Virus record (IMG/VR): IMGVR_UViG_2579778613_000002
Location: 1-19,866 of that record
Source: a virus
Lineage: Duplodnaviria; Heunggongvirae; Uroviricota; Caudoviricetes
DNA length: 19,866 nucleotides
Reading direction: 5' to 3' (one strand)
Shown here one piece after another: positions 4,693 to 19,176 of this stretch. Position 1 is the stretch's first letter, and every line of letters starts with the position of its first letter. Under the pieces are notes generated by a model, which was not told where the DNA came from, ran no database searches, and was given only the letters and a program-made list of their open reading frames with translations. The translations under genes and the position numbers were made by a program.

Positions 4693-6104
4693 TCCACCGT
4701 AAATTGAATGCCTGATTTTGAGGTATATGACCCAACCTGATTCCGTGGTTCTCCTGAAGGTGTCGAATCTTGTGCTGGCGCTGCGTCAGTATTCATTGAC
4801 ATATACCGCTTAACGGCACTCCCCAATGATTCACCTTTTTTAACATCCAACCCCAATATCTGACCGCCATTACGCGATTGTCCTGGATTGCCATTCGCGC
4901 TCATCCACTCGGCTTTAAACTCATTAAACTGCGCGTTTCGTCGCTCAAGGTTTGCCATCGCATCAAGCCATCTTGCGACCGTCTCAGGGTTATCCATGTC
5001 AGTTGGTGCACCCTGCCGAACGATCTCAACGTCTTTATCCGTTGCGGGGCCGGGAGGTAGGAATTTAAGAACCTGACTGTTAACAAGGGCATTTTGGCGG
5101 ATGCGCAAATCACGCAATGTTGTATCGCTTCCGGTAAGTTTTGCGAACATGTTCTGTGCGTTACCGAACAAACCTGTCGTTGGTTTTTCTGCTCTGAACT
5201 GTTGAGCAAGCGCACTCATGGAATTGGCTGAGTTTGATGATGCTGTAGCATTGTTTACAGCCGTCTCGATGCCTTTTTCCATGTTTACTGACAGCTTAGG
5301 TGCTTCGCTAATCAACTGCTGAGCCTTTTCCTGTGCTTGCTGCATCTTAAACCCGAACTCTTGCTGATCCAGAGCCAAGCGTTGTGCTGCGATATTGTGT
5401 CCAGTCATTGCTGACTGATAGGAAAGGTTTTGCCCTCTCGCCTGAAGTGCTTCTCCAGCCTGATTGCTGCGGATTGTCTCTGCAAGTTTGCCTCGGTCAA
5501 TTTCACGACCAGCCATCTTGTCCTGAACAGCAAACGCCTTTTCTGGTCCAAGCGCACCGAGAGACATAGTAGTCAACATGTGTGATAGCTGCTCTGGATT
5601 ATGGATACCTGTCTGAATCATCCAGTCAGCATTCGCCCCCACGCGATTTAACCTGTCCTTGTTGTCAGTAATGAATTTACTGTAGGCTTCCGGTCCCTGA
5701 GAAAGAGCGACGTTAGCCCTTATGGCTAAATCGCCCATATCGTTGCGTTGCTGATCATTAAGACCGGAAAACGCCTGTTGTGCCTGTGCAACAAACGCTG
5801 GATTTTCCTGGGCAAACTTAAATAGTCCCGATGGATCACCAGAAGCCCATGCATCAGCGTGAACCTTATTGAACGCACTAATCGCTTTCTGTTGCTGTTC
5901 CTGATTGTAAATATCAGCAACTCCAGCCAGACCACGTAACGCGGTCAGACCAACGTTATTTGCACCTGAGCGAGCCAGTTCATTGTTTTCGCGGATCAGA
6001 CCAAGCGTTGCGTTAATGTCGCTTGCCTTTGGCGCATTCTCATTTTGCGTACCGATGCCAGCCAGAAAACCACCAGAATTAATACCCTGTTGCCACGTAG
6101 CCAT
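4689..6104 (-). CDS. gp20: Ejection protein, P22 gp20 homolog (471 aa)
   Basis: ORF-track ORF. Length and position between gp7 and gp16 match P22 gene 20. Confidence 0.8.
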
Positions 6105-6114
6105 TGATTACTCC

Positions 6115-6807
6115 TTAAAACAACGAGCCAAGCAGACCAAGACCGCCGCCGATCGCAGCCCCCCACGGAGTTGATGAACCAATTAATTTCGCAAGTCCGG
6201 CCCCAGCAATAGCACCAGACGCACCTCCGCCAATAGCAGATTGCATTGCTGATGGTCTGTTGGCATTTGCCGCTGCAAGAGCCGCACTTTGCTGCGAAAT
6301 CTGACTCATGTTGTTGGCATATGTCTGCCCGGCGTTTGCCTGACCTTGCAGTGCGCCAAGACCAATATTTGCCAGATTCTGGTAGTTGTTCATCTGACCA
6401 GATAGCCATTGCTGACCAAGCGTTGGTGCGATTGTTGCTAACTGATTACTGGTTGCGGTGGAACCCAATCCACCTGTTGCTTCCGCTGCCGCCAGACTCT
6501 GATAGCGAGCCTGACCAGCAAGATCTTTGTACTGCTGAGAGTTGTAATACTGGTTAAGCGCCTGACCTTGCCCCTCCAGAGACGATAAGTTTTCGAGGCT
6601 TCCGACATACTTATCAGCCAGAGGAGTAAACGGCTTCAGGTTGTTCATGATGGTGTTGAACTGCTGATTTTGCAGGTCTGCTGCATACTTCTGAGCTTCT
6701 GCGGCATACTTTGCGCTTTTATCAGAACTGCCACCTTTCCCACCCTTTTCAGGGCAATAAGGTTCCTCGCCGCGCAGTTTTCTGCCCAGCTTAAATGCAT
6801 ATAACAT
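6115..6807 (-). CDS. gp7: Ejection protein, P22 gp7 homolog (230 aa)
   Basis: ORF-track ORF. N-terminus MLYAFKLGRKLRGEEPYCPEKGGKGGSSDK... and the Gly-rich C-terminal tail match P22 gp7 as I recall it (229 aa). Confidence 0.8.
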   Translation of the reverse strand: MLYAFKLGRKLRGEEPYCPEKGGKGGSSDKSAKYAAEAQKYAADLQNQQFNTIMNNLKPFTPLADKYVGSLENLSSLEGQGQALNQYYNSQQYKDLAGQARYQSLAAAEATGGLGSTATSNQLATIAPTLGQQWLSGQMNNYQNLANIGLGALQGQANAGQTYANNMSQISQQSAALAAANANRPSAMQSAIGGGASGAIAGAGLAKLIGSSTPWGAAIGGGLGLLGSLF

Positions 6808-9384: not shown

Positions 9385-9885
9385 TTATTCGCCCCCGTTA
9401 TCGCAAGGTTCCTTCCGGTGGAAGTAATTCCAACCATTCCACTTCGCCAACTGGTTACCGCTACCAACAGGCATACGGTTTGGATAACCGGACTTACATT
9501 TAGCGGCTTTTGCTCTGTCCATTGCAGACAGTTTGACGAGTCGCTCTTTCCCGTATCTGGCAGTGGTTATAAGTTTTGCTGGCGCTTCCAGCGCATAATC
9601 TGGAGCAATGCGGCAGGCAAGGTTGAAAATGACGGCATTGATAGCGTTATTTGATAAACCGTGCTCATCGCCCGGTTCTGGAGCGACATCTGCATCAGCG
9701 AAAATGTAGCCAACGTTGATACCAGGTGACACATCACCGCCAAGCCATTCAGCCATCATCATTTCAAGGTCGTTGACGCCGTCTTCCATAGACTGCGGTT
9801 CTACATCGGTTAACGTGGCATTTGATGCCACACCGAGCTTACGTAATGCCGCAAGAACTAAATCACCCTTCGTTGTCAGGTTCAT
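9385..9885 (-). CDS. gp4: Tail adaptor / head completion protein, P22 gp4 homolog (166 aa)
   Basis: The ORF-track ORF (9385-9966) has a spurious N-terminal extension. Homology to P22 gp4 ([33 protein letters not shown]...) begins at the internal Met, [33 protein letters not shown], giving 166 aa as in P22. Confidence 0.8.
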
Positions 9886-10105
9886 CTGCTGCCGCCTTAG
9901 GTTTTCGACCAGGCTTTTTACGCTGTTTTTCTTCTTGCTCTGGCTCTGGCTCTGACTCTGCAACATCCTTCAGAAGATCATCAGGATGTGCAAACCAGCC
10001 AGCATCCAGATATTCCTGAAGCTCTTCGGCTTTCACGATTTCAAAGTCGTATCCAACGCCTTTCCACTTCTTCATGTTGCCATGGCGAAAGATCATGTGT
10101 GTCAT
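9863..10105 (-). CDS. Small protein with acidic Pro/Glu-rich and basic C-terminal tail (about 80 aa); function unknown
   Basis: ORF-track ORF 9863-10153. Preferred start is the ATG at 10105 ([16 protein letters not shown]...) because SD GGAGA lies 5 nt upstream; alternative starts at 10096 or 10075. Contains an in-frame (GCTCTG)x3 repeat at 9937-9960 encoding EPEPEP. Overlaps the gp4 start by about 23 nt. Confidence 0.45.
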
Positions 10106-10118
10106 GCTTGTCTCCAGA

Positions 10119-10141
10119 TAAAAAAGGGAGCCGAAGCTCCC
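10119..10141 (-). terminator. Rho-independent terminator/attenuator immediately after the coat gene
   Basis: Minus strand reads GGGAGC-UUCG-GCUCCC followed by UUUUUUAU (stem 10126-10131 / 10136-10141). It lies 9 nt downstream of the coat stop codon, inside the late operon. Confidence 0.7.
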
Positions 10142-10149
10142 TCTGGTTA

Positions 10150-11445
10150 TCACGCGGTCTGGTTAGGCAGACCAACACCAATTGCCTCTGGTCGTACAGC
10201 ACATGCTGAATACCACACAGCAATACGGCACTTACCAGACAGAGTGTTGATATCACCCTGCGTTGCGAAGATGCCGTTAACACCAATACCAGGAATGCTG
10301 AAGGAAGACGTTTTCATGCCAGCAAACAGTTCATGGGTTACCGGGATCGGCTGAGACAGCAGACGGATTGAGTCATCAGCCCAGAACACGTTAGCGGTGG
10401 TTGTTGCCACGTTCAGAACGTTTACCGGAGTGGTATCAGCAAGAGAGGTGTTTACGTTAGCGTAAGCCTTCTCTTCTTTTGTCAGTGACGCGTCATCCAG
10501 TGCAATCGGCTTCGGCGTGATTTCGATGTGAGTACCATCGATCACACGGGTGATTGAGAAAGTCGCATCATCAGTCAGCACGTTCTTCGCCATCTGAGAC
10601 AGGAATTTCACACCAGTGAAGCTGATTTTGTCGCCGCGCTTAAATCCGGTGGTGGAGGATACGGTCACCGTTGCAACACGGTTGTCGACGTTCTCTTTGT
10701 TACCATCGGTATCAAGGGTGTATGCCTGCGGCTTAAACTTCTGCGCTCCAGACACAGTTACACCAGTAGCGGTTGACTTGGTAACTGCCGGAAGTTTCGG
10801 TGAGCGAAGAATTTCATCAAAGCCAGCAATCTGACGCTGAATAGTACCGTTGCGATACGCTTCTTCAGGAACGCGCCCAAAGATGTCACCATCTACCAGG
10901 TTGCGGCCTGCTTTGCGGTAATCGTCAGGGTTCAGGAAGTAACTGATGCCCATATCGCGGTTTAGCTCACGGGAGAACATCAGGCGCTCTGCATCAGACA
11001 CAAAATCCCAGCCAGACAGGCCAGTAGATGGACCAATTGCGCGGGTATCGTGAACAACAAGTGAGCCCATTTCGGTTGCCTGTTTGGCAATCGCTGACTC
11101 AATGTTATTCGCCAGTTTTTTGGCGGATGCCTGGATGCGGCGACGGTAAGAACGCTCATCACGCAGGTCATCTGCACGAAGCTCGAAGAAATCGTTATCC
11201 GGATCGCCCATGTTGCACTTCACGGAGAGTTCCAGAATCCCGGTTGCGTTGCCAGTTAAATCCCAGCCAGTCTGGGTTGGCGCTTCCTGCTCAACAGGCA
11301 TCCACACGGTGTTGCTTGAACGCTGCATGGATTCTGCCGGAGGGGTGTATTTTGTCACTTTGGACGCCATTGGCGTCAGGTTCTGGACGGTTTCGATGAT
11401 TTCATCGATAGCGTAAGTAACTAACTGCCCTTCTTTGAGAGTCAT
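10150..11445 (-). CDS. gp5: Major coat protein, P22 gp5 homolog (431 aa)
   Basis: ORF-track ORF. Sequence (...[22 protein letters not shown]...[10 protein letters not shown]...CRIAVWY...[14 protein letters not shown]) closely matches P22 coat protein (430 aa) as recalled; downstream of scaffold. Confidence 0.9.
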
Positions 11446-11512: not shown

Positions 11513-12034
11513 ATGAGCATGGAACTGAATGAATACTTCGAATACCGCGATGGCTCTTTGGTTTGGAAAGCCAGAAGCTCTGAATTTTTCAACAACAAAA
11601 AGAATCGCAACTATCACAACGTTTGGAATGCAAAACACGCTGGGAAAGTTGCTGGTCTTTTAGAAAGCAATGGATATATCCGCATAAGAATTAACGGCAT
11701 TAAGTGGCTAGCACACCGCATCGTATGGGTGATGTTTAACGGAGATATTCCAGAAGGCATGGAAATTGACCATATAAATGGGATTCGCCACGACAACAGA
11801 ATTGAAAATCTTCGTCTTGTGAAAAAATCAGCAAACCAAAGGAATAGAATCAAACTATCTAAAAATAACTCCAGCGGAATATCTGGAGTTTACTTTTGCA
11901 ACACGCGGAAAAGATGGATCGCTCATAAGCGACTGCTTAATGCAAGAGTGCAAAAAGTATGTTCTTCATTCGAAGAGGCGAAAGAAGTAATCAGAAAGTT
12001 TGACGAGGAAAACAACATCACGATATCGAAATAA
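11513..12034 (+). CDS. HNH homing-type endonuclease (NUMOD4-like N-terminus, HNH motif, AP2-like DNA-binding domain), inserted between scaffold and coat genes
   Basis: ORF-track ORF, antisense to the late operon. HNH motif EIDHINGIRHDNRIENLRLV; N-terminal YRDGSLVWK and downstream GISGVYF...KRWIAHK fit the NUMOD4/HNH_3/AP2 architecture of phage homing endonucleases. Start is more likely the second ATG at 11519, which has AGGG 8 nt upstream. Extended -10 TGcTATACT at 11472-11480. Its TAA stop (12032-12034) directly abuts the scaffold stop codon (12035-12037). Visibly AT-rich. Confidence 0.8.
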   Translation: MSMELNEYFEYRDGSLVWKARSSEFFNNKKNRNYHNVWNAKHAGKVAGLLESNGYIRIRINGIKWLAHRIVWVMFNGDIPEGMEIDHINGIRHDNRIENLRLVKKSANQRNRIKLSKNNSSGISGVYFCNTRKRWIAHKRLLNARVQKVCSSFEEAKEVIRKFDEENNITISK

Positions 12035-12946
12035 TTATCGAATTCCTTTATTCAGTTGCGCCTTAAGCTTGCGGTATGTCTCTACATCCCCTTTGTTTGC
12101 TGCCGCTTCCATCTGCTTTTCAATCGCAGATATATTTGCAGCAACAGCGTGTCCCTGAATGGGTTCATCAGGTAACGGGGCTTCTGAAACAGGCTTGGCT
12201 CGAGGCTTGAGAGTTAAACGTTCTGACAGTCGAGTGAGTTCAATCAGCGCGGATTGCCCGTCCATCGCCAGCAACTGGCGTGTTTTCTCAGGATTAGCAC
12301 CAAGGTGATACATGAGAGCGGCGGATTTCTCCGGGAAGAGGCGCATGATGTCGGCACCGACTGCTGGCGGCACCAGTTGCATGAATGCATCCTCTTTCTC
12401 CTGATAGTCAGGGATATTGAGCTTTTCCGCTGCGTCGTAGTGCTTACGGGCTGCCTCGACGTATTGCGCTGATTGCTGGGTGAACTCCTGAGTTTTTCGA
12501 CCCTGCTCGGCGACAGCCTGGCTTCGTGCATCCATAGCCTTGATCTGCCATTCACTGTTTGCCTGCTGGAAGGCAGCCAGTGCGCGGCTCTGGTCATAGT
12601 CGTACTTAGCCAGTGCGTCTTCGGAAAGATAATCGTTAGGGTCTGGTTGTTTTGGTAACTCAGGGCTCACCCGCAGGTGCTCCGGCAACTCTCCACGCTT
12701 AACTGCTTCCATCTGCTGCTCAAGCTCACGCTGGCGTTTGCGTTCGATGCGGCGACGGGCAAATTCAGCATTAGTTGCCGGGTCTTGTTTTGGTTTCTCA
12801 TCGTCTTTCAGGACAATCTCGAAGCCTTCTTCCTGACCTGCGTTGTCGTTGGCATTATCGACAACTAAGCCATCAGCAGATGCCGCTGCATGATTGCCGG
12901 GCAGGGTTAATTCTTCAGAAGCCTGAATGTCGGTGGTTTGGTCCAT
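12035..12946 (-). CDS. gp8: Scaffolding protein, P22 gp8 homolog (303 aa)
   Basis: ORF-track ORF. Same length as P22 gp8 and near-identical stretches (e.g. [12 protein letters not shown]..., ...[49 protein letters not shown]...). Confidence 0.85.
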
Positions 12947-18452: not shown

Positions 18453-18477
18453 AATAAAAAAGGCCGCCTGAGCGACC
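18453..18477 (-). terminator. Rho-independent terminator downstream of the AT-rich 80-aa ORF
   Basis: Minus strand reads GGUCGC-UCAG-GCGGCC (one G-U pair) followed by UUUUUUAUU (complement of 18453-18461). Confidence 0.6.
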
Positions 18478-18494
18478 AATTTAATAATTAATTA

Positions 18495-18737
18495 TCAATA
18501 ATGTGGGAATTGGCTACTATTTTGCAAGATAACCCAAGATGGGCGAAACAAGTCAAAAACATTGATGCTTAACAGGGCTTCATTTATTGATTTTTTTTCA
18601 TCCGTAGAAACTCCGCGTCCTGCATTTGACATTACAAGCTGACCATTAACTATTTCACTACATTGTTTTACATAACTACCTGGCGGTATTGATTGAAAGT
18701 TACATGTACCATTTATTATTTTATCAATTTCACTCAT
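18495..18737 (-). CDS. AT-rich moron ORF (80 aa); function unknown
   Basis: ORF-track ORF. SD GAGG 5 nt upstream of the ATG. Strikingly AT-rich compared with neighbours, and followed by its own terminator. Protein has no motif I recognise. Confidence 0.5.
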   Translation of the reverse strand: MSEIDKIINGTCNFQSIPPGSYVKQCSEIVNGQLVMSNAGRGVSTDEKKSINEALLSINVFDLFRPSWVILQNSSQFPHY

Positions 18738-19176
18738 ATCAACCTCGTCTAGTTGTTCGTCATAGATTCAGTGGCTGGCGGTGACGATTCCGCTTTTCGG
18801 GAGCTACCCTAGCCACTGCTTGATTCTATCCGATGTCTTTCCATCAGTCCGCCACCACAAAGAATCTTTTTTGCCATAAGGCAGGAGGTTCATCTTTCAG
18901 TGGCTGCCAGTGTTATTTCCCCGCTTTCTGGCTTGGGTTGTTTCGCTGTACTGCCGTAACTGGTTACCAAGAATAAATTTTGGTTTCATTATCAAGCCCA
19001 TCCGTAGATAGGCTTTGTAATGAACTGGCTCTTATCTCAACGCAGCCCCTTACCGCGCGCCATATGCTTAACTTCAAGCATCAGCAATGAGATGTTAAAT
19101 CTGGATTCACTCCAGAAGTGATCACCACCCTGTCTACAGAGCCAGATGTGAAGGATGATGAGTAAAATTATCGCTA

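Follow-up and report, generated by a model that had tools for sequence, protein, structure and literature searches.

The minus-strand hairpin that directly follows the coat gene in the 19,866-nucleotide stretch of phage DNA analysed here (the window) is, judged by sequence and placement, the orthologue of the Rho-independent terminator called 't coat' or 'tGP5' in P22-like phages, and is not new. The hairpin is genuine, looks functional and is strongly conserved, yet whether it attenuates strongly is doubtful. The RNA of the late operon can fold here into a very stable GC hairpin capped by a C(UUCG)G loop and followed by a U-tract, and comparison of related sequences shows that selection has maintained both hairpin and U-tract in phages with different coat-gene types and from different host genera. 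We give about even chances to the reading in which this orthologous terminator is leaky, leaves hairpin-capped RNAs and causes a step-down from the procapsid genes to the head-completion genes, whose products are needed in low copy number. Any attenuation in late infection would probably be modest.

Gene order and anatomy of the hairpin

Every long ORF in the window is encoded on the minus strand, and the order is Rz-like spanin, small and large terminase, portal, scaffold, coat, hairpin, small ORF, Ad3 adaptor (P22 gp4), Hc3 (gp10), tail needle (gp26), gp14 and the ejection proteins gp7, gp20 and gp16. The window is thus late-operon DNA of an E. coli phage of the P22-like group. In the coat/gp4 region, megablast gives 96–98% identity to the E. 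coli Lederbergvirus phages Louie, Dewey, HZ41, Bas106, APC_JM3.2 and IME10, and the same 338-nt locus is found as a prophage in 217 of 5,426 complete E. coli genomes. Nucleotide similarity of the window to Sf6, HK620 and CUS-3 does not begin at the hairpin but further on, at the gp4/gp10 junction. The window begins at Rz, and gene 23/Q lies outside it; in phage Louie (98% identical), a Q-like antiterminator gene is located just upstream of the lysis genes, and the Sf6 record annotates Q, PR', qut and tR'.

The coat (major head) protein gene, encoding 431 aa, occupies positions 10150–11445 of the minus strand and was assigned from the ORF list and by its match to PHROG 283/22632 (E 3e-151); its counterparts are named coat or major head protein in Louie, APC_JM3.2 and IME10. 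The stop codon, TGA, is at 10152–10150. The gene of the gp4-type head–tail adaptor (Ad3; 166 aa) is at 9385–9885 on the same strand (PHROG 637, E 8e-66), and its product is 61% identical to P22 gp4. The true gp4 start is the ATG at 9885, although the longest ORF begins at 9966, and the first 23 nt of gp4 are shared with the end of the small ORF. An equivalent over-long gp4 is annotated in three relatives.

The hairpin occupies the 44-nt gap between coat and the next gene. Its core, GGGAGC-UUCG-GCUCCC, lies at 10126–10141 on the minus strand and was identified from the sequence and by a terminator scan. The 5' stem (10141–10136) and the 3' stem (GCTCCC, 10131–10126) enclose the loop TTCG (10135–10132) and form six perfect pairs, five of which are G-C; the stem can be extended to nine pairs over 10144–10123. 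The U-tract, read from the sequence at 10118–10125 of the minus strand, consists of T6 (10125–10120) followed by A and T. The Shine–Dalgarno (SD) sequence of the small ORF, GGAGA (10111–10115, minus strand, also from the sequence), is placed 4 nt past T6, 2 nt past T6-A-T and 5 nt before the ATG (10105–10103). The coat stop had been put 9 nt from the hairpin in the original prediction; the actual distance is 8 nt to the GC stem and 5 nt to the extended stem.

The element has the form of an intrinsic (Rho-independent) terminator, a GC-rich hairpin with an immediate U-tract. The terminator scan reports it with nine pairs, including five G-C pairs, and with the top score on the minus strand. The calculated ΔG of the extended hairpin is −14.3 kcal/mol, and its 66-nt context has a folding z of −2.5. 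When a perfect stem of at least 6 bp, at least five G-C pairs and at least six T within the next 8 nt are required, the window contains four sites compared with a mean of 0.05 per dinucleotide shuffle; the post-coat hairpin and its T-run are therefore not due to chance. At that stringency, the late-operon strand has just one further site besides the post-coat one. An Rfam scan of the whole window at the gathering threshold returned sar RNA and int-alpA, both away from the hairpin, and no match at the hairpin itself. A bidirectional terminator was also considered and rejected, the tail on the + strand being TCTGGTTA. The placement within a single late operon stands as predicted: the head-completion, needle and ejection genes are all downstream of the hairpin, on the same strand as coat.

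Known counterparts and conservation

The counterpart of the hairpin is marked in three GenBank records. In Sf6 (AF547987), the note describes a stem-loop and likely transcription terminator, 't coat', which is the only annotated terminator within the late operon downstream of tR' in that curated record. In HK620 (AF335538), it is a consensus termination sequence after the major capsid transcript, 'tGP5', and in P22 (NC_002371) it is a stem_loop at 6102–6119, the location of which is likened to that of the HK97 and lambda stem-loops. In IME10, Louie and the other closest relatives, the hairpin is unannotated. The elements of Sf6, HK620 and P22 share with the window the strand, a GC stem with a 4-nt loop, and the order of coat stop, hairpin, U-run, SD and an ORF (orf69/hkbT/gene 6) overlapping the gp4 start; the small ORFs are homologous (22–33% identity) and gp4 is 40–61% identical. 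Three differences are evident. First, the window stem has an extra A-U pair, giving GGGAGC/GCUCCC compared with GGGGC/GCCCC in the P22-type element. Second, the loop is UUCG in the window, whereas it is UGCG in P22 and UUAC in Sf6 and HK620. Finally, the small ORF of the window carries a Glu-Pro repeat linker, which is absent from the ORFs of P22, Sf6 and CUS-3.

Similar elements are found past the capsid genes of lambda and HK97. The lambda E/FI gap is composed of the E stop, ATGGCCC-TTCG-GGGCCAT, TGTTTCTCTGT, GGAGGAG and the ATG of FI, and the HK97 gp5/gp6 gap is composed of the gp5 stop, GGGCGGG-GAAA-CCCGCCC, TTTTAACGT and ATG, with the annotation 'terminator, putative'. Both share with the window the succession of stop, hairpin, T-rich run, SD and ATG directly past the most abundant head protein, and both elements are within a Q-antiterminated late operon. 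The UUCG tetraloop is shared with lambda, whereas HK97 has GAAA. In contrast, neither the head modules nor the downstream genes are related, the stems differ in sequence, and the T-tract of lambda is weaker. FI of lambda, which has the same position past the capsid gene as the small ORF, shows no similarity to it. The lambda and HK97 stem-loops are analogous to the window element and not demonstrably homologous. Putative terminators are also annotated before and after the major tail gene of HK97; together with those past lambda E and HK97 gp5, they show that hairpins follow the most abundant structural genes.

A further comparison is offered by T7, in which the incomplete terminator T-phi stands right past capsid gene 10 and leaves fewer transcripts for the tail genes. 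T-phi acts on T7 RNA polymerase with no antitermination factor, and its efficiency has been measured experimentally. The likeness lies in the placement, directly past the major capsid gene, of a terminator that is partial in T7 and would be so in the window; the difference is that T-phi works on a phage polymerase instead of the host polymerase, and without an antitermination factor. For T7, there is documentation of leaky terminators that balance expression (cited in PMC9163698).

Among close relatives of the window, the hairpin is invariant in seven isolated phages, one of which has a T-to-C change in the U-run. A set of 80 IMG/VR loci with near-identical gp4 includes 76 with sufficient upstream DNA, and the hairpin is present in all 76. 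In these relatives, the loop is UUCG, UUAG, UUCU or UUUG, the U-run has 5–7 T, and one stem variant contains a G.U pair.

We also compared a diverse set of 34 prophage loci (one genome per species, gp4 identity down to 39%), the hosts of which include Escherichia, Shigella, Citrobacter, Kluyvera, Buttiauxella, Xenorhabdus, Pantoea, Rahnella, Pseudescherichia, Providencia, Tatumella, Rosenbergiella, Erwinia, Yersinia, Yokenella and Proteus. A hairpin of the form GGGGC-NNNN-GCCCC or GGGAGC-NNNN-GCUCCC follows the coat stop in 32 of these 34 Enterobacterales prophages and in turn precedes a T-rich run, an SD and an ATG. The two hairpin-less loci are both from Symbiopectobacterium, one IS-disrupted and one rearranged. 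The extended stem begins 2–21 nt past the coat stop in 30 of the 32 hairpin-bearing prophages; the other two are a short Xenorhabdus contig, on which the coat end is not assessable, and an Erwinia locus with a frameshifted coat gene. The stop-to-stem gap is at most 8 nt in 26 of 34 related loci and 12–21 nt in the other eight. P22, Sf6, HK620 and CUS-3, which represent three different coat-gene types, have the hairpin as well.

In an alignment of 30 distinct versions, the eight invariant columns are all stem positions. Four stem pairs are invariant, and two pairs covary between G-C, A-U and U-A: pair 13–22 is G-C (23), A-U (6) or G-U (1) and is unpaired in none, and pair 10–25 is A-U, G-C or U-A. 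The covariation score is reached in 0 of 500 shuffles and is above all slid controls. Pairwise identity is 82% for the hairpin and tail, 66% for the coat 3' end and 63% for the small ORF, where the flank values come from global alignment and have to be read against a shuffled baseline of ~59%. In the 112 pairs with flanks at this baseline, the hairpin is still 81% identical.

The sequence past the stem is conserved in composition. The T fraction at +1 to +9 past the GC core is 0.72 compared with a background of 0.24 (32 lineages), the first U positions past the stem are 72–97% T, and at least six T in 9 nt are found in 27 of 32 lineages. A weak U-tract is seen in a few lineages, namely L108 (ATTCTCAC), L113 (ACCTTTGC) and L103–107 (TTTCTTAC). 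The UUCG loop is present in 24 of 32 lineages, and a GGAG or GAGG motif stands at the SD position in nearly all of them; the distance from stem end to ATG is ~15–26 nt across loci, and the spacer preceding the stem is poorly conserved overall. Selection on the U-tract itself argues for termination rather than for a bare stabilizer hairpin. Thus, the hairpin with a UUCG loop and U6 run that had been predicted directly past the coat gene is confirmed in the sequence, conserved and under selection.

The small ORF and its hexamer repeat

The 80-aa ORF past the hairpin (9863–10105, minus strand; stop codon TGA at 9865–9863) is a homologue of P22 orf69, HK620 hkbT and Sf6 gene 6, as assigned by PHROG 1175 (E 4e-37, residues 1–78) and by alignment, in which P22 orf69, Sf6 gene 6 and the CUS-3 ORF match it at 22–33% identity. 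The protein is tripartite, with an N-terminal domain (residues 1–46), an acidic Glu-Pro linker and a basic tail of pI 9.8. It is net acidic (pI 5.0; 19 D+E compared with 13 K+R), as the original prediction had stated. Close relatives differ hardly at all in the N-terminal 46 residues, and the substitutions among them in the ORF are mostly synonymous. A Pfam search with the small ORF gave no family, only a sub-threshold DUF6660 match, and a PDB profile search gave no relative. The AlphaFold2 model is poor (mean pLDDT 58, pTM 0.32); at this low confidence, it predicts a β-hairpin and a helix in residues 2–34 and disorder in residues 48–76.

The 337 database homologues are named 'hypothetical protein', and two large searches returned near-identical proteins only, so that a deep alignment of the small ORF is impossible. 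A few homologues are misnamed dihydrolipoamide acetyltransferase, presumably due to the Glu-Pro linker, and the ORF is missed or mis-started in the annotations of IME10, Louie and Dewey. The epsilon34 paper describes the gene as varying in length and of unknown role, and the P22 homologue as nonessential (PMC2629481).

A hexamer tandem repeat (CAGAGC/GAGCCA units; 9933–9960, minus strand) was detected in the ORF by TRF, with a period of 6 and 4.7 copies, and encodes E-S-E-P-E-P-E-Q. The + strand reads (GCTCTG)x3 plus ACTCTG. The predicted (GCTCTG)x3 is therefore present on the + strand, but the encoded peptide is ESEPEPEQ and not the predicted EPEPEP. A comparison of hexamer copy number among related phages had been suggested with the prediction, and the number does vary: the repeat units differ among seven isolated phages, 1 to 14 Glu-Pro units are found in 78 relatives by a translation-based count, and the hairpin-to-gp4 distance varies in 6-nt steps from 239 to 317. 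Twelve of 80 relatives have a WDGH domain (PF25311, E 1e-39) inserted ahead of the linker; 11 of these 12 have enough upstream sequence for the hairpin to be seen.

Expected strength and competing explanations

The 2021 phage L paper describes the roles of intra-operon terminators as 'not known' and puts forward two options (PMC8022706). The first is partial termination, which lowers the amount of downstream mRNA, and the second is the halting of spurious transcription that lacks gp23/gp24 antitermination. The attenuator idea of the original prediction is the first of these published options.

In the leaky step-down reading, we infer the termination efficiency, the routes of readthrough, the stabilization of RNA and the effect on stoichiometry. 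The hairpin would form a leaky transcript boundary between scaffold and coat (hundreds of copies) and the head-completion, needle and ejection proteins (~3–30 copies). Part of the polymerases would stop in the U-tract, just before the SD of the next gene. Terminated and processed RNAs would both end in a hairpin that resists 3' exonucleases, and the coat/scaffold message capped in this way would thus outlast and outnumber the downstream message. Most polymerases would read through, since the late operon would be transcribed by Q/gp23-modified polymerase. It is established that Q-modified RNA polymerase resists terminators in lambdoid late operons. As a second route, the ribosome ending the heavily translated coat gene would occlude the 5' arm of the stem. 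Q/gp23 modification and ribosome occlusion would together make the step-down modest rather than a strong block. Portal is a 12-copy protein and tailspike is made abundantly in P22; the portal gene is upstream of the terminator and the tailspike gene far downstream. Given these positions and amounts, which count against this reading, mRNA dosage cannot be the main determinant of stoichiometry.

Occlusion of this kind has been described in E. coli for the lambda tR2 terminator, which is ~90% efficient with a stop codon 28 bp upstream and <10% efficient with the stop at 5 bp (PMC4824070). The repression was assigned to ribosome occlusion and was lost once translation was uncoupled (Li et al. 2016, PMC4824070). 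The coat stop of the window, 5–8 nt from the stem, is in the same occlusion range; the tR2 system differs in being an engineered reporter, and eight lineages in our set have gaps of 12–21 nt, so occlusion is not a conserved requirement. Regarding the U-tract, strong sites have been found to need a GC(U)7RU bubble-edge motif (2026 preprint, bioRxiv 10.64898/2026.05.29.728758). When this motif is phased on AU at 10119–10118, the window fits at −10C, −2A and −1U and has C for G at −11, with C also at the first tract position; this 3-of-4 match suggests a terminator of intermediate strength. An approximate d'Aubenton-Carafa score, re-implemented with modern energies, is around zero for several members and shifts according to whether A-U extensions are counted as stem or tail, and it was not used for grading strength. 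A literature search returned no transcript 3'-end data at the post-coat site for P22-like phages or lambda. Q-modified polymerase and ribosome occlusion could also leave termination negligible, with no step-down.

An unlikely but substantial alternative is that the hairpin is only an insulator, which would stop polymerases that are not Q/gp23-modified (from spurious or internal initiation, in lysogens or early in infection) and would leave the coat-to-downstream ratios unaffected. This corresponds to the second option of PMC8022706. In BTP1, dRNA-seq reported four coding-strand promoters within the capsid cluster, whereas promoter-like sites in the window are not enriched (17 compared with 24.6 expected). 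Two other good minus-strand terminators of the window follow seemingly independent units, a moron (18737–18495) and a gene ending at 2108, so that terminators transparent to late transcription are normal in this operon; however, no lysogen-expressed gene lies directly upstream of the post-coat terminator. A pure insulator also hardly explains why the top-conserved non-coding feature is located exactly at the coat boundary in every lineage, and the same placement past lambda E and HK97 gp5 is equally hard to account for.

It is rather improbable that the element acts purely after transcription, as a barrier to 3' exonucleases or a processing landmark, with RNase E cutting 3' of it in the AU-rich stretch and the hairpin stabilizing the scaffold/coat mRNA. 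Several observations are consistent with such a role. The hairpin core is better conserved than the U-tract, with all eight invariant columns in the stem; the UUCG loop is kept in most lineages (24/32), and the hairpin is retained with a poor U-tract in L108 and L113. Little termination would be expected given the short stop-to-stem distance, and likewise given Q antitermination. Scaffold expression in P22 is reportedly modulated post-transcriptionally, which also fits. However, a pure stabilizer would not need first U positions of 72–97% T, with overall T at three times background in most lineages, nor would it need the constant place of the hairpin 5' of the next SD.

Slightly less probable again is a translation-gated checkpoint, which would tie the mRNA supply of the downstream genes and the small ORF to coat translation. 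Only polymerases that carry Q, or that are trailed closely by a coat-translating ribosome, would continue, and transcripts that are uncoupled or untranslated would end at the hairpin, which caps them. Very fast folding, in this kinetic race, would then be the property for which the near-universal C(UUCG)G loop was selected.

Finally, a DNA-level boundary, in which the ~35-nt block from stop codon to SD serves as a homology patch for head-module exchange, is very improbable: an identical 14-nt core (GGGGCTTCGGCCCC), often preceded by TAATCAAYA, is common to phages with P22-type, Sf6-type and CUS-3-type coats, and curated 'boundary sequences' occur elsewhere in the Sf6 genome, but the compensatory changes that keep pairing (GGGAGC/GCUCCC compared with GGGGC/GCCCC, and one G.U) are a signature of RNA structure, conservation of the spacer before the stem is poor overall, the same layout is built from different stem sequences in lambda and HK97, the curators of the Sf6 record left the post-coat site unmarked as a boundary sequence, and similarity of the window to Sf6, HK620 and CUS-3 begins at the gp4/gp10 junction.

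In summary, the records of HK620, Sf6 and P22 already annotate the element and the attenuator idea has been published before, so the discovery value is small. For annotation, the small ORF and the gp4 start at 9885 should be called correctly. Our comparison adds that nearly all P22-like prophages across Enterobacterales carry the post-coat hairpin, that the UUCG tetraloop and U-tract are retained and the stem covaries, that the hairpin is usually within ribosome-occlusion distance of the coat stop, and that the same layout is found past the lambda and HK97 capsid genes. The element thereby provides a clean test case for the role of intrinsic terminators inside antiterminated phage late operons.

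Hairpin sites with the post-coat layout

The post-coat hairpin, which lies between the coat gene and the small ORF preceding gp4, was compared with sites in lambda and elsewhere in the window. Between genes E and FI, in the segment 7161-7204 (1462-1505 of our lambda locus, L125), lambda carries a hairpin with a UUCG tetraloop (ATGGCCC-TTCG-GGGCCAT). It is followed by a T-rich stretch and then by the SD sequence of FI. The E/FI gap has the same architecture as the post-coat site of the P22-like phages; the hairpin carries no annotation in NC_001416. Within the window itself, a predicted bidirectional terminator (CCCACC-GTCA-GGTGGG, 2098-2083), with T-runs on either strand, is placed after a 143-aa gene that ends at 2108. 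On the minus strand, the hairpin is immediately followed by the SD sequence AAGGAG and by a 61-aa ORF, whose ATG is at 2063. Read on that strand, the segment 2063-2108 and the post-coat site have in common the order of hairpin, U-run, SD sequence and ATG.

Variation and annotation of the small ORF

A version of the small ORF of about 200 aa occurs in 12 IMG/VR loci with near-identical gp4 genes (L020, where it lies within 450-1223, and L037, L038, L045, L052, L063, L067, L074, L075, L078, L089 and L090). It retains the N-terminal motif, the Glu-Pro linker and the basic tail, but its central part contains an inserted WDGH domain (Pfam PF25311, E 1e-39). Eleven of the loci extend far enough upstream to show the post-coat site, and all 11 keep the hairpin, with a UUCG, UUAG or UUCU loop; L074 was left out of this count since its upstream sequence is too short.

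On the minus strand of the window, the longest ORF for gp4, the head-tail adaptor, starts at 9966 and encodes 193 aa, and the conserved 166-aa gp4 starts at 9885. Over-long gp4 genes are annotated in the E. coli phages Louie, Dewey and IME10, and the small ORF is missed or misplaced in these records; in those of Louie and Dewey, a 45-aa ORF overlapping the end of the coat gene is called instead.

Other units in the window

The scaffold and coat genes are separated by an inserted 173-aa HNH endonuclease ORF (11513-12034, plus strand; PHROG 99, E 1e-50), which is antisense to both. Comparison of phage records shows that Louie likewise has this ORF, and the coat gene has identical record coordinates in Dewey and Louie. 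The ORF is absent from APC_JM3.2, in which the coat start directly abuts the scaffold stop. It looks like a homing-endonuclease insertion into the head module. A terminator-like site lies within the scaffold gene at 12266-12280 (plus strand), about 230 nt downstream of the HNH ORF.

Between Rz and the terminase gene, the late operon contains a moron-like unit (18462-18819, minus strand). On this strand, it comprises an int-alpA RNA match (18819-18757; Rfam, 41.8 bits), a promoter-like site (TTGATA-16-AATAAT, 18742-18715), an AT-rich ORF of 80 aa (18737-18495) without a PHROG match and, 3′ of this ORF, a predicted intrinsic terminator (GGTCGC-TCAG-GCGGCC followed by T6, 18477-18462).

Finally, the plus strand encodes a sar antisense RNA (795-862; RF00262, 85.7 bits), an adjoining Arc-like repressor ORF (1303-1554) and a further ORF (1551-1868). 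This region is of the immI type, as in P22.
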